From a virus (taxonomy: Duplodnaviria > Heunggongvirae > Uroviricota > Caudoviricetes), in the IMG/VR virus record IMGVR_UViG_2671180847_000008: DNA of 46,714 nucleotides; one strand, given 5' to 3'. The translations under genes and the position numbers were made by a program. Shown piece by piece: positions 35,496 through 46,714 of this stretch (positions are counted from its first letter, which is position 1; the number at the start of each line of letters is the position of its first letter). The notes beneath the pieces are model-generated. The model had not been told where the DNA came from, did no database searches, and saw only the letters and a program-made list of their open reading frames with translations.

Positions 35496-38400
35496 ATGGG
35501 TAAAGGCAGCAGTAAGGGGCATACCCCGCGCGAAGCGAAGGACAACCTGAAATCCACGCAGCTGCTGAGTGTGATTGATGCCATCAGCGAAGGGCCGATT
35601 GAAGGTCCGGTGGATGGATTAAAAAGCGTGCTGCTGAACAGTACGCCGGTGCTGGACAGTGAGGGGAATACCAATATATCCGGCGTCACGGTGGTGTTCC
35701 GGGCCGGTGAGCAGGAGCAGACACCGCCGGAGGGATTTGAATCCTCCGGCTCCGAGACGGTGCTGGGTACGGAAGTGAAATATGACACGCCGATCACCCG
35801 CACCATTACGTCTGCAAACATCGACCGTCTGCGCTTTACCTTCGGTGTGCAGGCACTGGTGGAAACCACCTCAAAGGGGGACAGGAATCCGTCGGAAGTT
35901 CGCCTGCTGGTTCAGATACAACGTAACGGTGGCTGGGTGACGGAAAAAGACATCACCATTAAGGGCAAAACCACCTCGCAGTATCTGGCCTCGGTAGTGG
36001 TGGATAATCTGCCGCCGCGCCCGTTCAACATCCGGATGCGCAGGATGACGCCGGACAGCACCACAGACCAGCTGCAGAACAAAACGCTCTGGTCGTCATA
36101 CACCGAAATCATCGATGTGAAACAGTGCTACCCGAACACGGCACTGGTCGGCGTACAGGTGGATTCGGAGCAGTTCGGCAGCCAGCAGGTGAGCCGTAAT
36201 TATCATCTTCGCGGGCGTATTCTGCAGGTGCCGTCGAACTATAACCCGCAGACGCGGCAATACAGCGGTATCTGGGACGGAACGTTTAAGCCAGCATACA
36301 GCAACAACATGGCCTGGTGTCTGTGGGATATGCTGACCCACCCGCGCTACGGCATGGGTAAACGTCTTGGTGCGGCAGATGTGGATAAATGGGCGCTGTA
36401 TGTCATCGGCCAGTGTTGCGACCAGTCGGTGCCGGACGGTTTTGGCGGCACGGAGCCGCGCATCACCTGTAATGCCTGGCTGACCACACAGCGTAAGGCG
36501 TGGGATGTTCTCAGTGATTTCTGCTCGGCGATGCGCTGTATGCCGGTATGGAACGGGCAGACGCTGACGTTCGTGCAGGACCGACCATCAGATAAGGTGT
36601 GGACCTATAACCGCAGTAATGTGGTGATGCCGGATGATGGCGCGCCGTTCCGCTACAGCTTCAGCGCCCTGAAGGACCGCCATAATGCCGTTGAGGTGAA
36701 CTGGATTGACCCGGATAACGGCTGGGAGACGGCGACAGAGCTTGTGGAGGACACGCAGGCCATTGCCCGTTACGGTCGTAACGTCACGAAGATGGATGCC
36801 TTTGGCTGTACCAGGCGGGGGCAGGCGCACCGCGCCGGGCTGTGGCTGATTAAAACGGAACTGCTGGAAACGCAGACCGTGGACTTCAGCGTGGGCGCAG
36901 AAGGGCTTCGCCATGTACCGGGCGATGTTATTGAAATCTGTGATGATGACTATGCCGGTATCAGCACCGGTGGTCGTGTGCTGGCGGTGAACAGCCAGAC
37001 CCGGACGCTGACGCTCGACCGTGAAATCACGCTGCCATCCTCCGGTACCACGCTGATAAGCCTGGTTGACGGAAGTGGCAATCCGGTCAGCGTGGAGGTT
37101 CAGTCCGTCACCGACGGCGTGAAGGTAAAAGTGAGCCGTGTTCCTGACGGTGTTGCCGAGTACAGCGTGTGGGGGCTGAAGCTGCCGACGCTGCGCCAGC
37201 GCCTGTTCCGCTGTGTGAGTATCCGTGAGAACGACGACGGTACGTATGCCATCACTGCAGTGCAGCATGTACCGGAGAAAGAAGCCATCGTGGATAACGG
37301 GGCGCACTTTGACGGTAACCAGAGCGGCACGGTGAATGGTGTCACGCCGCCAGCAGTGCAGCATCTGACCGCCGAAGTCACCGCAGACAGCGGGGAATAC
37401 CAGGTGCTGGCCCGCTGGGACACGCCGAAGGTGGTGAAGGGCGTGAGCTTCCTGCTTCGCCTGACCGTGGCAGCGGATGACGGCAGTGAGCGGCTGGTCA
37501 GCACGGCCCGGACGACGGAAACCACTTACCGCTTCACACAACTGGCTCTGGGGAACTACAGGCTGACAGTCCGGGCAGTAAATGCGTGGGGGCAGCAGGG
37601 CGATCCGGCGTCGGTATCGTTCCGGATTGCCGCACCGGCAGCGCCGTCGCGGATTGAGCTGACGCCGGGCTATTTTCAGATAACCACCACGCCGCATCTT
37701 GCGGTTTATGATCCGACGGTACAGTTTGAGTTCTGGTTCTCGGAAAAGCGGATTGCGGATATCAGGCAGGTTGAAACCACAGCACGCTATCTTGGCACGG
37801 CGCTGTACTGGATAGCCGCCAGTATCAATATCAGGCCGGGCCATAATTATTATTTTTACGTTCGCAGTGTGAACACCGTTGGCAAATCGGCATTCGTGGA
37901 GGCTGTTGGTCAGCCGAGTGATGACGCATCCGGCTATCTGGATTTTTTCAAAGGCGAGATAGGGAAAACCCATCTGGCTCAGGAGCTGTGGACGCAGATT
38001 GATAACGGTCAGCTTGCGCCTGACCTGGCTGAAATCAGGACATCCATTACGGATGTCAGCAATGAAATCACACAGACCGTCAATAAGAAACTGGAAGACC
38101 AGAGTGCGGCAATTCAGCAGATACAGAAGGTTCAGGTTGATACAAATAATAACCTGAACAGCATGTGGGCTGTGAAGCTGCAGCAGATGCAGGACGGACG
38201 CCTTTATATCGCGGGTATTGGTGCCGGTATTGAGAACACCCCTGACGGCATGCAGAGTCAGGTGCTGCTGGCGGCAGACAGGATTGCGATGATTAATCCT
38301 GCGAATGGCAACACAAAGCCGATGTTTGTTGGGCAGGGCGATCAGATATTCATGAACGAAGTGTTCCTGAAACGCCTGACGGCTCCCACCATTACCAGCG

Positions 38401-38993
38401 GCGGTAATCCTCCGGTATTTTCCCTGACACCGGACGGGCGGCTGACGGCGAAAAATGCCGATATCAGCGGTAACGTGAATGCGAACGCCGGGACGCTCAA
38501 CAATGTCACGGTAAATGAAAACTGTACGATTAAGGGCATGCTGGAGGCGACTCAGGTCAGAGGTGACTTCGTTAAAGCTGTATCCAAATCATTTCCGAAA
38601 CAGGCTGGTACGTGGGGTAACACGGAAACACCAAACGGGACGGTTACAGTCACCATCAGCGATGATCATAACTTTGACCGTCAAATCATTATTCCGCCCA
38701 TTATCTTTAACGGAATAGCGTATAGCGATCCGGGAAGTGGTAATAACCCGGGAGGTACAAGATACACGGGTTATGGTTTTGAAGTTCGCAAAAACGGTGT
38801 ATTAATCGCATCCAGAGAAACTAAAGGGGCCATTCCCGGTAGCTACAGTGCGGTTATTGATATGCCGAGTGGCAGGGGAAGCGTCACTCTGGAGTTTAAG
38901 GTTTTCCATAAAGGCAATCAGTGGGCAGGTAATATCACCGACTGTACGGTGATTGTGACCAAAAAAGCTGCTTCCGGCATCAGTATTCGTTGA
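35496..38993 (+). CDS. J: Host-specificity / central tail fibre protein J
   Basis: 1165 aa; extensive similarity to lambda gpJ through most of its length as recalled. Confidence 0.95.
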
Positions 38994-39013
38994 AGTTGTT
39001 ATAACCCATATAA

Positions 39014-39039
39014 GGGCACCAGAAATGGTGCCTTTTTTA
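39014..39039 (+). terminator. Terminator after J
   Basis: GGCACC-AGAAAT-GGTGCC followed by TTTTTT. Confidence 0.8.
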
Positions 39040-39062
39040 TTGCAGAAAAGCGAGAGGTAATT

Positions 39063-39662
39063 ATGCGTAAACTTTATGCCGCCATTTTGTCCGCAGCCAT
39101 TTGTCTGGCCGTATCCGGTGCGCCTGCATGGGCATCTGAACATCAGTCCACGCTGAGCGCGGGGTATCTTCATGCCCGGACCAACGTTCCCGGCAGCGAT
39201 GATCTGAACGGGATTAACGTGAAATACCGTTATGAGTTTACGGACACACTGGGGCTGGTGACGTCATTCAGCTATGCAGGAGACAAGAATCGCCAGCTTA
39301 CCCGTTACAGCGATACCCGCTGGCATGAAGATTCCGTTCGTAACCGCTGGTTCAGCGTAATGGCGGGGCCGTCTGTGCGCGTGAATGAATGGTTCAGCGC
39401 GTATGCGATGGCGGGTGTGGCTTACAGCCGTGTGTCGACTTTCTCCGGGGATTATCTCCGCGTAACTGACAACAAGGGGAAAACGCACGACGTGCTGACC
39501 GGAAGTGATGACGGTCGCCACAGCAACACGTCTCTGGCGTGGGGGGCTGGCGTGCAGTTTAACCCGACCGAATCCGTGGCCATTGATATTGCTTATGAAG
39601 GCTCCGGCAGTGGCGACTGGCGCACTGACGGTTTCATCGTGGGTGTCGGTTATAAGTTCTGA
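39063..39662 (+). CDS. lom: Lom outer-membrane protein (Ail/OmpX family)
   Basis: Signal peptide; C-terminal [25 protein letters not shown] matches lambda Lom as recalled; RBS GAGAGG. Confidence 0.9.
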
Positions 39663-39688
39663 TTAGCCAGGTAACACAGTGTTATGAC

Positions 39689-39716
39689 AGCCCGCCGGTT
39701 CAGGCGGGCTTTTTTG
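39689..39716 (+). terminator. Terminator after lom
   Basis: AGCCCGCC-GGTTCA-GGCGGGCT followed by TTTTT. Confidence 0.85.
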
Positions 39717-39726
39717 TGGGGTGAAT

Positions 39727-42700
39727 ATGGCAGTAAAGATTTCAGGTGTACTGAAAGACGGCGCAGGTAAACCGGTACAGAACTGCACAATCCAGCTGAA
39801 AGCAAAACGTAACAGCACCACGGTGGTGGCGAACACGGTGGCCTCAGAAAATCCGGATGAAGCCGGGCGTTACAGCATGGACGTTGAGTACGGTCAGTAC
39901 AGCGTTATTCTGTTGGTGGAAGGCTTCCCGCCATCGCATGCCGGGACCATCACCGTGTATGAAGACTCACAACCGGGTACGCTGAATGATTTTCTCGGTG
40001 CCATGACGGAGGATGATGTCCGTCCGGAGGCACTGCGCCGCTTTGAACTGATGGTGGAAGAGGTGGCGCGTAACGCGTCCGCAGTGGCGCAGAACACAGC
40101 AGCCGCGAAGAAGTCAGCCAGCGATGCCAGCACATCAGCCCGTGAGGCGGCAACCCATGCGACTGATGCTGCAGGCTCAGCACGTGCAGCCAGCACGTCA
40201 GCCGGACAGGCCGCTTCGTCGGCTCAGTCAGCGTCTTCCAGCGCAGGAACGGCATCAACAAAGGCTACTGAAGCATCAAAAAGTGCTGCCGCTGCAGAGT
40301 CTTCAAAAAGCGCGGCAGCCACCAGTGCCGGTGCAGCGAAAACGTCAGAAACGAATGCCGCAGCATCACAAAAATCTGCGGCCACTTCTGCATCCACCGC
40401 GACCACGAAAGCGTCAGAAGCTGCCACCTCAGCCCGGGATGCGTCGGCTTCAAAAGTGGCGGCAAAATCATCAGAAACGAGCGCAGCCTCGAGCGCCGGC
40501 AGTGCAGCTTCCTCGGCAACGGCGGCAGGAAATTCCGCGAAGGCCGCAAAAACGTCTGAGACGAATGCGGATAACAGCGCACAGGCGGCAGCAGACTCAC
40601 AAACTGCATCGGCAAACTCCGCGACAGCAGCCAAAAAATCAGAAACCAACGCGAAAAATAGTGAGGCAGCAGCAAAGGTCAGCGAAACCAACGCTAAAGC
40701 GTCAGAGAACAAGGCGAAAGAATATCTCGACAAGGTCGGGGGACTCGTCAGCCCGATGACGCAATACGATTGGCCTGTTGTTACTGCTAGTGAGTCTCTT
40801 TACATCAAGATCGCGAAACTTTCCGATCCTGGAGCCAGCAGAAGTCATGTAACGCTAATGGTTACTAACGCTGGTAACTACGGCTCCCCTTACGGAAACA
40901 TTGACTTTATCGAGATCTCGGCGCGCGGTCTGCCTTCTTTGCTTAGTGCGGATAATGTTTCTCGTCATCTGAGTATACGCCGCTTAGGGTCAACCGGGCT
41001 GACCGATAACAACCAGATGCGTTACGGCCTGGTTAAAGGTGACGGCTTTATTGAGGTTTGGGCATTCCAGGGTGCGTTTATTAACGACGCAAAGGTTGCG
41101 GTGCTGGCGCAGACAACACTAAACACAGAATTATACATTCCAGACGGATTTGTTAAGCAAACCGCCGCGCCTTCTGGATATATTGAAGGCAACGTTGTAA
41201 GGATTTACGACCAGGTAAACAAGCCGACTAAAGCAGATTTGGGTCTTTCTAATGCTATGCTTACAGGCGCTTTCGGTCTTGGCGGTAGCGGGATATCAAC
41301 AAACGGCAAGATGAGCGATGTAGAGATCTTAAAAGCTCTGCGTGACAAAGGTGGTCATTTCTGGCGCGGTGATAAGCCGACCGGAAGCACGGCGACCATT
41401 TATAGCCACGGTTCTGGTATATTCTCGCGGTGCGGCGATACGTGGTCAGCGATCAATATCGACTACTCAACCGCGAAGATTAAGATCTATGCCGGCAACG
41501 ATGCCCGGCTTAACAACGGGACTTTTAGCGTCAATGAGCTATACGGCTCGGCAAACAAGCCGTCGAAATCGGATGTTGGACTTGGCAACGTAACGAACGA
41601 TGCGCAGGTAAAAAAAACCGGTGATACAATGACCGGTGACTTGACAATCAAAAAAGGTACACCGTCAGTCTTCCTGCGGGCAGACAGTGGAGTCACCGCT
41701 TTGCGGTTTTATACTGGCGATAACACAGAGCGCGGCATAATCTATGCTGGTCCTAACACTGATTCGCTTGGCGAAGTTCGCATCAGGGCAAAGACAGCAG
41801 GGGGGACATCAGGAGGGGATCTTGTTGTTCGTCACGACGGGAGGGTTGAAGTCCGTGATCTCACAGTAGCGTATAAAATTAAAAGCAGAACGATTGAGAT
41901 TGCAAATACCGACACTGACTCATCGGCAACTACGCTAAGCATCTATGGAGTACAGCACACGCCGTTGGTTTTAACGCGTTCTGGTTCTTCTGAAAATGTG
42001 TCCATTGGGTTTAAGTTAGACAACGTGAACCCAAAGTATCTTGGAATTGATACTAATGGGGATCTGGCTTTTGGTGAGAGTCCTGATCAGAAACAAAACA
42101 GCAAATTGATCACGCAAGCGAAACTCGACAAGGGATTAACGATTGGTGGTCAACTGGCTTTCAAAGGTACGACAGCGTTTTCAGCCGTTGCTACGTTCAG
42201 TGCCGGGATAGCAGGAGCCATCGAGCCGGAAAACATTGACGGCCAGACGGTTAATCTTAACAACCTGACCATCATCAAGTCAGATGCCGGGGCAGTTAAA
42301 TACTATATTTGTCCATCCTCTGCAGGTGGTGCAAATATCACCAACAAGCCTGACGGCGTAACAGGTAACTTTTTGCTCCGTGTTGAATCGACTCGTAAGG
42401 TTAGGGATTCAGATTATGCGAACATACAAACGCTGATTAACAGCGACACAAAACGTATATACGTTCGCTTTGTTGTTAATGGAAACTGGACAGCGTGGAG
42501 TCAGGTTGTTGTTTCCGGATGGAATCAGGATGTAACCGTCAGGTCGTTAACCTCGACGACTCCATCAAAATTAGGTGGCGGGCGGATTGATGTGCTTGGA
42601 AGTACGTCAGATTATGGCAGCATGAATTGTACCGTTCGTGGTGTTGATAGCACTGGAACCAATTCGGCGTGGTCGGTAGGCACATCAGAAAGCACAGGCA

Positions 42701-43506
42701 AAAAGTTGTTCCTGAAAAACCACAGAAGCAGCGCTCAAGTGCTGTTAAATGGCGATGATGGAGCGGTTCAACTACTAAGTGGCACTGTTAACGGTGCTAC
42801 AGCGCAGGCGCTAACCATCAACAAAGATGAGGTTAACTCAACTGCCGATTTAGTAATTAGAAAACAAACAGGGACTGGCAATCGTTTTGCTTTACTTAAT
42901 TCAGGTAATTCAGAACTGCCAGTTAGCATCGCGGTCTGGGGGTCAAGTGATCGACAAAACGTTTTTGAGGTTGCAACGTCTGCTGCGTATCTGTTTTATG
43001 CGCAAAGAACACCAGCAGGCCAGTTGTTTGATGTAAATGGCGCTATTAATTGCACAACGCTGAATCAGTCATCAGACCGCGACCTTAAAGACGATATTCG
43101 CGTTATCAGCGACGCGACGAAAGCAATCCGCAAAATGAACGGTTACACCTACACGCTCAAGGAAAACGGCCTGCCTTATGCTGGCGTTATTGCACAGGAA
43201 GTAATGGAGGCGATACCAGAAGCTGTGGGATCGTTTACTCATTATGGTGAAGAGTTGCAAGGTCCGACCGTTGACGGCAACAAGCTACGCGAAGAAACGC
43301 GCTATCTTAATGTTGACTACGCCGCCGTGACGGGTTTACTTGTTCAGGTCGCCCGTGAAACAGATGATCGCGTTACCGCGCTGGAAGAGGAAAATACAAC
43401 GTTACGTGAAAATCTGGCAACAGCAGGCACCCGGATCACCACTCTGGAAAATCAGGTAAGCGAACTGGTTGCACTTGTCCGGCAGTTAACAGGAAGCGAA
43501 CATTGA
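39727..43506 (+). CDS. stf: Side tail fibre protein with lambda-Stf-like N-terminus and C-terminal intramolecular chaperone domain
   Basis: N-terminus MAVKISGVLKDGAGKPVQNCTIQLKAKRNSTTVV as in lambda Stf; Ala/Ser-rich repeats (40080-40740); C-terminal region NGYTYTLKENGLPYAGVIAQEV plus coiled coil resembles the peptidase-S74 self-cleaving chaperone. Confidence 0.85.
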   Translation: MAVKISGVLKDGAGKPVQNCTIQLKAKRNSTTVVANTVASENPDEAGRYSMDVEYGQYSVILLVEGFPPSHAGTITVYEDSQPGTLNDFLGAMTEDDVRPEALRRFELMVEEVARNASAVAQNTAAAKKSASDASTSAREAATHATDAAGSARAASTSAGQAASSAQSASSSAGTASTKATEASKSAAAAESSKSAAATSAGAAKTSETNAAASQKSAATSASTATTKASEAATSARDASASKVAAKSSETSAASSAGSAASSATAAGNSAKAAKTSETNADNSAQAAADSQTASANSATAAKKSETNAKNSEAAAKVSETNAKASENKAKEYLDKVGGLVSPMTQYDWPVVTASESLYIKIAKLSDPGASRSHVTLMVTNAGNYGSPYGNIDFIEISARGLPSLLSADNVSRHLSIRRLGSTGLTDNNQMRYGLVKGDGFIEVWAFQGAFINDAKVAVLAQTTLNTELYIPDGFVKQTAAPSGYIEGNVVRIYDQVNKPTKADLGLSNAMLTGAFGLGGSGISTNGKMSDVEILKALRDKGGHFWRGDKPTGSTATIYSHGSGIFSRCGDTWSAINIDYSTAKIKIYAGNDARLNNGTFSVNELYGSANKPSKSDVGLGNVTNDAQVKKTGDTMTGDLTIKKGTPSVFLRADSGVTALRFYTGDNTERGIIYAGPNTDSLGEVRIRAKTAGGTSGGDLVVRHDGRVEVRDLTVAYKIKSRTIEIANTDTDSSATTLSIYGVQHTPLVLTRSGSSENVSIGFKLDNVNPKYLGIDTNGDLAFGESPDQKQNSKLITQAKLDKGLTIGGQLAFKGTTAFSAVATFSAGIAGAIEPENIDGQTVNLNNLTIIKSDAGAVKYYICPSSAGGANITNKPDGVTGNFLLRVESTRKVRDSDYANIQTLINSDTKRIYVRFVVNGNWTAWSQVVVSGWNQDVTVRSLTSTTPSKLGGGRIDVLGSTSDYGSMNCTVRGVDSTGTNSAWSVGTSESTGKKLFLKNHRSSAQVLLNGDDGAVQLLSGTVNGATAQALTINKDEVNSTADLVIRKQTGTGNRFALLNSGNSELPVSIAVWGSSDRQNVFEVATSAAYLFYAQRTPAGQLFDVNGAINCTTLNQSSDRDLKDDIRVISDATKAIRKMNGYTYTLKENGLPYAGVIAQEVMEAIPEAVGSFTHYGEELQGPTVDGNKLREETRYLNVDYAAVTGLLVQVARETDDRVTALEEENTTLRENLATAGTRITTLENQVSELVALVRQLTGSEH

Positions 43507-43689
43507 TATCTTTCAAGACCTGAAGGAGGCTGTTCCTGGTACGTTCTGACTGTTGTTGATCTGGAAATTGCAACGGAGGAAGAGAAATCGTTACTGGCCG
43601 CATGGAAGACATATCGGGTGTTGTTGAATCGTGTTGATACATCAACTGCACCTGATATTGAGTGGCCGGAAGAACCAGACACAATGTAA
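43507..43689 (+). pseudogene. 3' remnant of a tail-fibre assembly (tfa) gene
   Basis: No start codon; the last ~45 codons ([42 protein letters not shown]) resemble Tfa C-termini; in frame directly after the stf stop. Confidence 0.55.
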
Positions 43690-43691
43690 GC

Positions 43692-43737
43692 GAAAAAGAA
43701 AAACCGCAGACACGACGTATGCAGGACGTGCTGCGGT
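43692..43737 (-). terminator. Terminator of the dinI-like gene
   Basis: ACCGCAG...CTGCGGT hairpin followed on the minus strand by TTTTTCTTTTT. Confidence 0.65.
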
Positions 43738-43804
43738 TGGCTGGTGAACTTTCGATAGTGCGAGTATTGAATGATTTCCAGCCGTTACCGATTTTACGTG
43801 TTTA

Positions 43805-44053
43805 TTAGTGAACAAACCACTCGTCAGCAGACTCCCAGGTATCTTTCAGAGTCTCCTGAACAAATGTTTTTGCAGAATCTTTATCTGCGGTGCGTGTAAC
43901 AGAAAGCCCATCGTTGCTGGTGGCTTTTACGATCACCTCTACATCGTCATAACGTTTACTGATGCGTCGGGTTAATTCTTCCTTTAACGCATCCACAGCA
44001 CCGTTTGGCATTTTAGTTATTTTTTCTTTGGCTATGCAGATCTCAATACGCAT
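43805..44053 (-). CDS. dinI: DinI-like DNA-damage-inducible protein
   Basis: 82 aa; [11 protein letters not shown]...[16 protein letters not shown] resembles the DinI family; LexA boxes in its promoter. Confidence 0.85.
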
Positions 44054-44066
44054 AAAAGTCCCTCTA

Positions 44067-44114
44067 TACTGTGTTTGTATACAGTATTATTTTTAACTGT
44101 ATGGATAAACAGTG
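44067..44114. promoter_or_regulatory. Two tandem LexA (SOS) boxes in the dinI-like promoter
   Basis: taCTGTgtttgtatACAGta (44067-44086) and aaCTGTatggataaACAGtg (44095-44114); both fit CTGT-N8-ACAG exactly. Confidence 0.85.
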
Positions 44115-45212
44115 TCAAGAGGTCTTATTTCTGCTCCTTTGGAGCTCTTCAAAACGATTATGTAAAGATTTCGGATACAGTTCGGTATATACCTGCCATA
44201 GCACGTTTAATGAACGATGCCCTGTAACCTGAGCGACTTCCTCAATACTAAAACCAGCCTCAAATAAGCGACTTGCCCCTTCTCTACGCAAATCATGGTA
44301 TCGCAGATCTTTAATACCTAATTTGCTTCTTACCCTCTGAAATCCTGCAGTAACAGAAGTGCTGTTATATGGAAAAATGAATTCCGATTTTTTGGGCTGT
44401 CGTTGGACGATATCCCAGGCTTCCCCAAGCAAGGCTACTTTCATGTGGTTGCCTTCCTTTTTGCGTGGATCTTTCCTGTCTCTTACGAGTATAGATTTTT
44501 GTTCCTGGTCGAGATCTTCCCATCGTAACCGGCATACTTCTCCGATCCGCATACAGGACCACACAGAAAATTTGAGGATATCAACGAACGGAATTTTTGA
44601 GCATTTATGAGTAGATCGTTGTTGAAGGCCTTCAATGAGCATGTCCAGTTCATCAGATGCTGGTCTACGATTACGACGGTTTGATTTACCAATCAAACCA
44701 AGTTTAAGTAGATATGGGCGAGCGCTTTTCGCCGGGTTTGATGTGTAATTAATTCCGTATACAGGTTTGGCCGCATCCAGAACACTGCCAAGATAACTAA
44801 CATCGTGGCTGACTGTTGCTGGACCTGCACCAGCGTTGTTTCTTAGCCTGCAATGTTCAATTACGTCATTTTCTGTCAGTTCAGATAGTTTGATCGCGGA
44901 GATGTCACTATCCATAAGCAGTTCCAGCACATATCTTTTAGTACGGCCTGCTTTACCTCCGGCATTTGGGTCATTTAAATATTTGTGTAGTAAGTCACGG
45001 ACTGTAAGTCCGTCAACTGCATTTGATGATGGAATGCCATATAGATCTAATTCCATCACTTTCTGTGTTCCCCATGTTTTGGCATGAGCATGTTTAGGGA
45101 ATGTTTTGCTTTCCCTGTAAGTGATAACACCTTTTTCTTTGATAATCACATTACAGCGATAGCGTGGTGTGCCATCGGATTTTAGTCGTTTCTCTATGTT
45201 ATAGTACGCCAT
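44115..45212 (-). CDS. int: Tyrosine integrase (dusA-targeting type)
   Basis: C-terminal catalytic region with HDLRREGASRLFEAG and VTGHRSLNVLWQVYTELY (His-x-x-Arg, Tyr nucleophile); adjacent to the attachment site in dusA. Confidence 0.9.
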   Translation of the reverse strand: MAYYNIEKRLKSDGTPRYRCNVIIKEKGVITYRESKTFPKHAHAKTWGTQKVMELDLYGIPSSNAVDGLTVRDLLHKYLNDPNAGGKAGRTKRYVLELLMDSDISAIKLSELTENDVIEHCRLRNNAGAGPATVSHDVSYLGSVLDAAKPVYGINYTSNPAKSARPYLLKLGLIGKSNRRNRRPASDELDMLIEGLQQRSTHKCSKIPFVDILKFSVWSCMRIGEVCRLRWEDLDQEQKSILVRDRKDPRKKEGNHMKVALLGEAWDIVQRQPKKSEFIFPYNSTSVTAGFQRVRSKLGIKDLRYHDLRREGASRLFEAGFSIEEVAQVTGHRSLNVLWQVYTELYPKSLHNRFEELQRSRNKTS

Positions 45213-45231
45213 TACACGACCTCGTTATTTC

Positions 45232-45267
45232 GGGTTCCCAGAAAACGTGGGAACCTGTGCGGGAACC
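45232..45267. repeat. GGGAACC repeats between int and the att core (candidate arm-type sites)
   Basis: GGGTTCCC (45232-45239), GGGAACC (45249-45255), GGGAACC (45261-45267); a further GGGAACCC at 1229-1236 lies on the phage side of attL. Confidence 0.4.
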
Positions 45268-45300
45268 TAACGCGAGAAAAATAGCCTGAAATGTTCAAAA

Positions 45301-45410
45301 ATGCACGATAATCCTGAAACACAGAAAACTAATCAAACCAGCGTGATGCCTGAAAAAACTGGCGCTTACTGGAGTTCTCGGTTTAGCATTGCTCCTATGC
45401 TCGACTGGAC
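45301..45410 (+). repeat. attR region: prophage-supplied replacement 5' end of dusA
   Basis: About 80% identical to 1071-1180; encodes a diverged N-terminus ([35 protein letters not shown]) fused in frame to the rest of dusA. Confidence 0.8.
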
Positions 45411-46338
45411 GGACAGACATTGCCGCTATTTCTTGCGTCTGCTTTCCCGCAATACGTTGCTGTATACCGAAATGGTGACCACAGGGGCGATTATTCACGG
45501 TAAAGGTGATTATCTGGCGTACAGTGAAGAAGAACATCCGGTAGCGTTGCAACTGGGCGGTAGCGATCCGGCGGCGCTGGCGCAGTGTGCAAAGCTGGCA
45601 GAAGCGCGCGGATATGATGAGATCAACCTGAATGTCGGCTGCCCGTCTGACCGGGTGCAGAACGGCATGTTTGGTGCGTGTCTGATGGGTAATGCGCAGC
45701 TGGTTGCCGACTGCGTGAAAGCGATGCGCGATGTGGTGTCGATTCCGGTGACGGTGAAAACGCGTATTGGCATCGACGACCAGGACAGCTATGAATTTCT
45801 CTGCGATTTCATCAATACCGTTTCCGGCAAAGGCGAGTGTGAGATGTTCATCATCCACGCACGTAAAGCCTGGCTTTCGGGGTTAAGCCCGAAAGAAAAC
45901 CGTGAAATCCCGCCGCTCGATTATCCGCGTGTGTATCAACTGAAGCGTGACTTTCCGCATCTGACAATGTCGATTAACGGTGGTATCAAGTCGCTGGAAG
46001 AGGCCAAAGCACACCTGCAACATATGGATGGCGTGATGGTCGGGCGCGAGGCGTATCAGAATCCGGGTATTCTGGCGGCGGTAGACCGGGAGATCTTTGG
46101 TTCCTCGGATACCGATGCCGATCCGGTGGCGGTAGTGCGCGCCATGTATCCGTACATTGAGCGTGAACTCAGCCAGGGGACGTATCTCGGCCATATTACC
46201 CGGCATATGTTGGGCTTGTTCCAGGGTATTCCTGGCGCGCGGCAGTGGCGGCGTTATTTAAGTGAAAATGCCCATAAAGCGGGTGCAGACATTAATGTGC
46301 TGGAACACGCGCTCAAACTGGTGGCGGATAAGCGTTAA
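45301..46338 (+). CDS. dusA: tRNA-dihydrouridine synthase A (chimeric: phage-derived first ~35 codons)
   Basis: Full-length 345-aa ORF of the Dus family with catalytic Cys region (NLNVGCPS); promoter and 5' end lie in prophage DNA. Confidence 0.9.
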
Positions 46339-46420
46339 CTTTTCACCAAAAAGTAGTCAAATTCACCACGCCCTGCGCACCGTCGCGGGGCGTTTTGCTG
46401 TTAAATCAATAGATTATTTT

Positions 46421-46436
46421 TGGCATGATTCTTGTA
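46421..46436 (+). promoter_or_regulatory. Possible sigma54-type promoter element upstream of pspG
   Basis: TGGCATG-N4-TTGT resembles the -24/-12 consensus TGGCAC-N5-TTGC, with an imperfect -12. Confidence 0.3.
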
Positions 46437-46471
46437 ATGCCAGCAAGAGATTTCATATTTGGGAGAGCATC

Positions 46472-46714
46472 ATGCTGGAACTACTTTTTGTGATTGGCTT
46501 TTTTGTCATGCTGATGGTCACCGGCGTTTCGTTGCTGGGCATTATCGCCGCGCTGGTTGTGGCGACGGCCATTATGTTCCTCGGCGGTATGCTGGCATTG
46601 ATGATTAAGTTGCTGCCGTGGTTACTACTGGCGATTGCGGTGGTGTGGGTTATTAAGGCGATTAAAGCACCAAAAGTGCCGAAATATCAGCGTTATGACC
46701 GCTGGCGTTACTAA
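46472..46714 (+). CDS. pspG: Phage shock protein G (small inner-membrane protein)
   Basis: 80 aa, two hydrophobic helices; MLELLFVIGFFVMLMVTGVSLLGIIAALVV...QRYDRWRY; directly downstream of dusA as in E. coli K-12. Confidence 0.85.
   Translation: MLELLFVIGFFVMLMVTGVSLLGIIAALVVATAIMFLGGMLALMIKLLPWLLLAIAVVWVIKAIKAPKVPKYQRYDRWRY

Follow-up and report, generated by a model that had tools for sequence, protein, structure and literature searches.

Module exchange between phage tail fibres has been recognised since the early work on tail-fibre mosaicism and is a textbook mode of tail-fibre evolution. Complete Tfa-type assembly proteins consist of a variable N-terminal domain that binds the fibre and a conserved C-terminal domain. 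Peptidase_S74 chaperones are located at the C-terminus of trimeric fibres and spikes, where an S-D-x-x-x-K motif is followed by a coiled coil, and are released by autoproteolysis after the trimer has folded. Phage T5 pb1, K1F endosialidase and phage S16 gp37 end in such a domain, of ~130-145 residues and with its S-x4-K pair followed by a coiled coil, and in T5 pb1 Ser1264 and Lys1269 cut the Thr1263-Ser1264 bond to free a chaperone of 133 residues (PMC4690869). Phage lambda (stf-tfa of Ur-lambda) and the dusA prophage of Escherichia coli C311 pair a side tail fibre gene with a separate tfa. Truncated tfa pieces in cryptic prophages are catalogued as pseudogenes, among them tfaS of CPS-53, listed in E. 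coli K-12.

The 46,714-nt stretch of DNA analysed here (the window) is an mEp460-like lambdoid prophage adjoining dusA, and its right end is the tail-fibre end. Phage mEp460 (JQ182728 / NC_019716, mEp460_018-022) has the same order of J, lom, stf, a tfa stub that its record leaves unannotated, dinI and integrase, but exists as a free phage and not, like the window, integrated at dusA. The N-terminal 412 residues of mEp460 Stf are the same as in the window, residues 820-1261 are similar (66% identity) and the junction with the stub is 91% identical, but the central fibre segment (window 40701-42537, aa ~413-819) is unrelated. Compared with T5, K1F and S16, the window has its S74 domain, known here from sequence, grafted on a lambda Stf N-terminus in a temperate siphophage, and shows no homology to T5 or K1F in its receptor-binding part. 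With lambda and C311 it shares the N-terminal anchor, the Ala/Ser-rich stalk and the position after lom, and its stub equals the last ~45 codons of their tfa, but in place of the distal half of Stf and the whole N-terminal two-thirds of Tfa, the portion that binds the fibre, it has a cassette that includes a chaperone. Unlike tfaS-type fragments, the stub is tied to one partner, the S74 module with a 44-nt spacer, and is itself chimeric.

Composition of the side tail fibre

The genes at the right end of the window follow the order J, lom, stf, a short non-coding stretch, a dinI-like gene, integrase, dusA and pspG (Table 1). The integrase gene beside the 5' end of dusA marks the end of the prophage. 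The dinI region belongs to a right-hand backbone common to many lambdoid phages. A scan of 43300-44200 found no transcription terminators. The equivalent locus of E. coli EC25 is 98.4% identical across 42000-44110, and RefSeq names its fibre 'pyocin knob domain-containing S74 family peptidase' and its stub 'tail fiber assembly protein, incomplete, missing N-terminus'.

Table 1. Coordinates of the features at the tail-fibre end of the window.
Feature	Position	Strand	Description and basis
J	35496-38993		ORF list and Pfam
lom	39063-39662		ORF list and Pfam
stf	39721-43506	+	One ORF of 1261 aa, GTG start, TGA stop
Lambda-type proximal module of stf	39727-40568	+	phage_tail_N and Ala/Ser-rich repeats; blastn with lambda and C311, blastp breakpoints
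Non-lambda distal shaft and tip of stf	40569-43071	+	aa ~284-1117; without lambda or C311 match
Peptidase_S74 intramolecular chaperone of stf	43072-43503	+	aa 1118-1261; Pfam, alignment with S16 gp37
Spacer	43507-43550	+	44 nt; always travels with the S74 module
5' part of tfa stub, cassette-linked	43551-43629	+	No start codon; 14 mismatches in 79 nt against C311 tfa (~18%)
3' part of tfa stub, backbone-derived	43630-43689	+	Includes the TAA stop; zero mismatches against C311
dinI-like gene	43805-44053	-	Pfam DinI, E = 1e-19; phage matches
Tyrosine integrase gene	44115-45212	-	Pfam Phage_integrase; adjoins the dusA 5' end; RefSeq annotation at the EC25 equivalent
dusA	45301-46338		Followed by pspG; prophage end

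An initial annotation of this DNA had proposed that Stf begins like its lambda counterpart, and this agrees with a Pfam phage_tail_N domain (PF08400) at aa 3-136 (E = 1.1e-71), with the position of the gene directly 3' of lom and with a blastn match of 86.6% identity to lambda DNA over 39535-40568, which takes in the 3' end of lom and stf codons 1 to ~283. The match to C311 is longer (38955-40568; 92%, blastn) and stops at the same position, so that 40568, at ~aa 283 of Stf, is the left boundary of the swapped cassette. Past aa 337-350 there is no DNA or protein likeness to the Stf of lambda or C311, and the window Stf is therefore without a lambda-like, Tfa-dependent distal half. Stf was also assigned to PHROG tail fibre families; NCBIfam offered no useful family for either Stf or the stub.

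The segment that follows, aa ~284-1117, is predicted to be the mature receptor-binding part, and the domain just before the putative cleavage site resembles the repeated domain of T4 gp34 (profile match 4uxe, E = 3e-9). From aa ~284 on, the fibre is 73% identical in protein to one encoded on an IMG/VR contig (L066), with 78% DNA identity over 40585-43406. The L066 fibre has an unrelated N-terminus, the same S74 domain at its end and 'SETNAK' Ala/Ser-rich repeats in common with the window; 3' of its gene lie a hairpin with a T-run and then an integrase gene, with no tfa stub. Stubs of tfa were likewise absent from all 20 of the more distant S74 loci checked (the L066-L086 group). Fibres of the L066 type thus appear to be relatives of the donor type and not the donor itself, L066 being only 78% identical, and transfer would have been from an S74-type fibre into a lambda-type Stf. 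The cassette is itself modular, since the mEp460 fibre departs from that of the window only in its central segment, and phage PhiR70_1 and strain B1W1 have only the S74 domain and the stub in common with the window, on much shorter fibres. Taken together, these breakpoints show stf to be a three-part mosaic, with a lambda-type anchor and stalk (aa 1 to ~283), a portion from another fibre family (~284-1117) and an S74 domain (1118-1261).

The initial annotation further held that Stf ends in a domain resembling S74-type chaperones. A domain search returned Peptidase_S74 (PF13884) at aa 1118-1169 (E = 3.4e-13), with 50.1 bits against a curated cut-off of 22, and the domain occupies the last 144 aa, at the extreme C-terminus. 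A Ser and a Lys stand five residues apart at its start (Ser1118, codon 43072-43074; Lys1123, codon 43087-43089), within S1118-D-R-D-L-K1123, which aligns with SSDRRIK of the chaperone region of phage S16 gp37 (PDB 6f45; motif SSDRxxK). Across 27 aligned homologues, 50-92% identical overall, Ser1118, Asp1119 and Lys1123 do not vary, nor do ~80 further positions of the chaperone domain, and the stf ORF is uninterrupted in relatives too (841-1282 codons between flanking stops). For the terminal coiled coil there are weak coiled-coil profile matches and one long helix, at model residues 261-319 (pLDDT 64-86 by 10-residue block), when AlphaFold2 is given the C-terminal 322 aa as a monomer together with the 27-sequence alignment. 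The model is poor overall (mean pLDDT 58, pTM 0.28), as is expected of an intertwined trimer.

By homology to T5 pb1, K1F endosialidase and S16 gp37, the chaperone domain would nucleate folding of the trimer from the C-terminus. Lys1123 would activate Ser1118, and the Ser1117-Ser1118 bond, which by analogy is the predicted scissile bond, would be cut, freeing the 144-residue chaperone and leaving a mature fibre of 1117 aa. Self-cleavage and independence from Tfa are thus suggested by likeness in sequence: with a built-in chaperone, a separate Tfa would be dispensable.

The tfa stub and the replaced stf-tfa pair

After the stf stop codon (TGA, 43504-43506) the same frame remains open for 60 codons, up to a TAA at 43687-43689. 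These 60 residues match the Caudo_TAP profile only at positions 90-130 of 131 (Pfam, E = 2.8e-20). Likeness to intact tfa begins at ~43551, giving ~45 codons plus the stop, a tfa fragment of 139 nt. Against lambda tfa, the fragment aligns with codons 152-188 at 89% DNA identity (43558-43667), and tblastn with lambda Tfa finds residues 152-191 of 194 only, at 43558-43677; this is the sole match, and the search hence detects no intact tfa in the window. Upstream of the Tfa-like part there is no in-frame ATG, GTG or TTG. The first in-frame start is a GTG at 43612, which leaves 25 codons, and no ORF of at least 30 aa is listed in the stub frame. What remains is a C-terminal piece that lacks both a start codon and the N-terminal domain with which Tfa binds the fibre, in keeping with the RefSeq label of its EC25 equivalent, and we conclude that it is a non-coding pseudogene stub. 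In these respects the locus is as the initial annotation had described it: ~45 codons for a Tfa C-terminus directly after stf, in the same frame and without a start codon of their own.

Judged by their E-values, both the S74 and the Tfa similarities lie far beyond chance. That stub and stf share a frame carries no independent weight, because the prior expectation is one in three and one junction is common to all copies by descent.

The 44-nt spacer between the stf stop and the Tfa-like part is at least 88% conserved in 51 loci. We considered that it might be degraded tfa sequence and rejected this: aligned with the 5' part of tfa that the stub lacks, it reaches a local score of 8, no better than shuffled sequence (null 8.6 +/- 1.4, p = 0.78).

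DNA homology to lambda, interrupted at 40568, resumes at 43558, and the ~3 kb between are without a counterpart. A search with both flanks joined as the query retrieved dusA prophages with both flanks but other cassettes. One of them, the dusA prophage of E. coli C311, has an intact Stf of 774 aa and an intact Tfa of 194 aa, followed by the same dinI, integrase and dusA, and from 43551 to the end of the window the two are 98.9% identical. The last 11 residues of C311 Tfa are exactly those at the end of the stub. The cassette measures 2982 nt in the window and 1928 nt in C311. The C311 prophage thus represents the 'before' state on the same backbone, which supports the reading of the window as a module swap.

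Mismatches between the window and C311 are unevenly distributed: 14 fall in 43553-43629, none in 43630-44017 and 21 in 44018-46714 (~2.7 kb). The 5' part of the stub co-varies with the S74 cassette among relatives. By these patterns the stub is a chimera, its first 79 nt coming from the cassette and its last 60 nt from the resident backbone, with the latest right-hand crossover probably within 43630-43667, a near-invariant block that encodes a stretch of 13 residues.

Age, spread and reuse of the junction

Sixty IMG/VR loci carry an S74 domain at least 85% identical to that of the window, and 49 of these (36 unique sequences) have at least 148 nt downstream. The arrangement of S74 stop, 44-nt spacer and stub has an identical offset in 49/49 of these loci. 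A 221-nt junction probe (43400-43620) gave nearly full-length matches in 805 of the 5426 complete E. coli genomes, with a median of two copies and a maximum of five. Most of the copies in IMG/VR and RefSeq belong to E. coli prophages that share descent, and the counts are thus not of independent events. Three isolated phages (mEp460, Ayreon and PhiR70_1) have the junction as well, and its prophage sites include dusA, ssrA and a position beside prfC. The spacer being conserved and not recognisable as tfa, these copies point to one non-homologous junction, made once and inherited. In a search of the literature on side tail fibres with intramolecular chaperones, mEp460 and tfa remnants, we found no paper describing this junction.

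On either side of the junction, the sequences have been reassorted. Six clusters of S74 alleles are combined with 16 C-terminal tails of the stub; one cluster occurs with 14 tails and another with 6, several tails are common to more than one cluster, and each tail runs into different downstream DNA, such that the identities of S74 domain, stub and downstream DNA are uncoupled. The stub frame is open in nearly all copies, which a sceptic could read as selection and not as the result of functional tfa genes having supplied sequence repeatedly.

The shared junction and the chimeric stub together imply that the cassette came with the stub already present. The scar would then not have been made in the prophage of the window; rather, the cassette probably arrived with the stub and recombined homologously inside it. 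The initial annotation had seen here a scar of recombination that replaced the distal fibre and its separate chaperone: the replacement is upheld by comparison with C311, with the refinement that the junction is old and shared. A crossover in the stub matches experiments in which stf-tfa was the site of recombination between lambda and two defective prophages, Rac and Qin (PMC3945230); in the Rac crosses, one third of the recombinants had their right-hand crossover in a tfa region of 95% identity (PMC3945230). Phage PhiR49_2 carries a different, non-S74 cassette followed by a tfa stub with another left end, starting ATEEE, which indicates that stranding of the 3' end of tfa is a recurrent outcome.

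Origin and significance of the stub

Altogether, we consider it very probable that the window holds a mosaic stf with an S74 chaperone and an old, travelling tfa stub, and that a C311-type stf-tfa pair was replaced through a crossover in this stub. On this account, an S74 fibre gene with its 44-nt 3' flank would have been joined once, by a non-homologous event, to the last third of tfa, and the stub would have travelled with the S74 module since then. Since it is this last third of tfa that is conserved, transfer of the cassette between lambdoid phages and prophages could use the stub as its right-hand homology arm and the shared N-terminal and repeat region of stf as its left; the latest such right-hand crossover, in the stub at ~43630-43667, would have replaced a stf-tfa pair of the C311 kind. 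Direct observation covers the domain content, the catalytic motif and the breakpoints, the 'before' state, and how far the junction has spread and how mosaic it is. A changed receptor may be inferred, and a change of host range is a reasonable expectation given that over ~830 residues the mature fibre has no relationship to lambda Stf.

One extension of this account is that S74 domain and stub together form a portable cassette independent of a separate chaperone, in which the stub has been retained as the 3' homology arm through which the cassette could enter any Tfa-type lambdoid phage and be exchanged again, by second-order selection for a recombination landing pad. Such selection would account for a stub that is kept at full length, with an open frame, in essentially all copies, yet we regard it as a tentative proposal and not a very likely one.

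Much less probable is that the stub is a local scar, left when illegitimate recombination or deletion in this lineage truncated the phage's own tfa at the S74 insertion. The last 60 nt of the stub and all that lies downstream are indeed essentially identical to a resident-type tfa-dinI backbone, that of C311, as a local event would predict. The same junction is found, however, at dusA, at ssrA, beside prfC, in three isolated phages and in 805 genomes, and the 5' 79 nt of the stub are 18% off C311 while the rest is identical, as left by a homologous crossover inside a pre-existing stub. Independent events at a hotspot should have given spacers that differ between lineages, whereas the spacers are at least 88% identical.

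Expression of the stub is equally improbable, whether the TGA were read through and Stf extended or a small protein were made that comprises only the Tfa C-terminal domain. Its open 60 codons in frame with stf, a frame that is intact in 35/36 unique relatives, and the existence of short-protein PHROG families with just this domain (phrog_2341, 88 positions; phrog_3792, 78 positions) would fit such a product. Against this, no start codon precedes the conserved part, one relative (L018) is frameshifted and C-terminal ends differ in length (39-68 codons); conservation of the frame follows from one ancestral junction, without independent replicates, and the mosaic diversity of the stubs matches that of functional tfa tails, which accounts for an open frame without selection. 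Any extension of Stf, moreover, would be attached to the chaperone and lost with it on cleavage.

Finally, although E. coli has many tfa genes (a 2.1-kb query, 42000-44110, comprising the stf 3' end, stub and dinI, matched 5338/5426 genomes) and Stf is dispensable for plaque formation by lambda, so that a viable phage is no proof of a working fibre, it is most unlikely that the S74 domain is a decayed relic on a fibre that does not work or that relies on the Tfa of another prophage in the same cell, as the ORF is intact at 1261 aa and uninterrupted in relatives, the catalytic residues and ~80 chaperone positions are invariant among divergent homologues, and the stub lacks the domain with which Tfa binds fibres.

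An S74 fibre followed by a tfa remnant is a pattern already known: it is common in lambdoid prophages of E. coli and automatically annotated, both features being named in RefSeq. What our analysis adds is modest: one old junction links the stub to the S74 cassette, and the latest crossover fell within the stub itself. At this locus one can trace how temperate phages remodel their recognition of hosts: receptor-binding cassettes are exchanged between two homology arms, a conserved stalk and the conserved tail of a chaperone gene, and the built-in chaperone would make a separate helper gene redundant. This is also of practical interest for lambda-based particles with new fibres, for which such cassettes provide natural splice points and should need no accessory gene.

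Reading frames and hairpin around the fibre gene

In four RefSeq loci (L001, L005, L006 and L090), the PGAP annotation gives the equivalent of stf in two pieces, an N-terminal fragment labelled 'pseudo, missing C-terminus' and a distinct C-terminal CDS. In all four, a single open frame of 842-1282 codons runs from the N-terminus to the stop of the Peptidase_S74 (S74) domain, and the split looks like an annotation artefact caused by the protein's mosaicism rather than gene decay. The long antisense ORFs of stf, which can be likened to the annotated orf206b of lambda, most probably arise as an artefact of base composition in the GC-rich repeats.

The inverted repeat 3' of the tfa stub is preceded by a run of A on the plus strand and hence reads on the minus strand as a hairpin followed by a T-run; it is probably the dinI terminator. 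A consensus terminator scan did not report this repeat, because its loop is longer than the limit of the scan.

Coordinates of features in the window and in comparison loci (locus-internal)
Feature	Locus	Coordinates	Strand	Remarks
Antisense ORFs, 100-169 aa	Window	39894-40733	minus	Across Ala/Ser-rich repeat region of stf
Inverted repeat CCGCAG...CTGCGG	Window	43690-43740		
Equivalent of window 39721-43506	L001	731-4507		RefSeq
Equivalent of window 39721-43506	L005	731-4507		RefSeq
Equivalent of window 39721-43506	L006	577-4335		RefSeq
Equivalent of window 39721-43506	L090	2250-4739		RefSeq
Alternative fibre cassette	L091	4619-5431		E. coli E89 dusA prophage
Small ORFs and tfa stub behind Stf	L087	4401-5124		Phage PhiR49_2
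Methyltransferase-like gene and tfa 3' fragments	L020	4523-5718		
S74-linked tfa stub	L020	4523-4666		Left of methyltransferase-like gene
SAM-dependent methyltransferase-like gene	L020	4724-5392	minus	
89-aa ORF, other tfa 3' fragment	L020	5449-5718		
LEM-3-like GIY-YIG nuclease gene	L005	4760-5533	minus	E. coli 1506D011 prophage adjoining ssrA
Reverse transcriptase and SLATT_5 genes	L079	4867-6766	minus	Between S74-type fibre gene and dinI

Other fibre cassettes

The E. coli E89 prophage carries a different cassette in the same backbone as the window. A fibre tip resembling gp53 comes first, then one small ORF, and last a tfa fragment in the opposite orientation, a layout reminiscent of a relic of an invertible tail-fibre segment. 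In PhiR49_2, Stf (687 aa) lacks the S74 domain and is followed by ORFs of 92 and 97 aa, neither with a Pfam match, and then by a tfa stub that carries no annotation and differs at its left end from the S74-linked stub. The 97-aa product looks membrane-embedded, and a near homologue of its ORF, interrupted by a stop, lies downstream of the fibre gene of L079, a degraded prophage.

Possible cargo genes downstream of the fibre gene

In comparison locus L020, two tfa 3' fragments in direct repeat flank the methyltransferase-like gene, which suggests that recombination between tfa ends brought this gene in as cargo. Of the two fragments, the 89-aa ORF is similar to the short PHROG family phrog_2341. 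In L005, the nuclease gene lies directly downstream of the tfa stub, in the place of dinI.

L079 (IMG/VR contig IMGVR_UViG_2861043448_000004, whose span ends short of the dusA side) shares the dinI-integrase end of the window, and a truncated terminase gene directly adjoins its fibre gene. Its reverse transcriptase (RVT_1, E 8e-21) and two-transmembrane effector (SLATT_5, E 1e-28) genes probably entered this same hotspot as a defence-type insertion.
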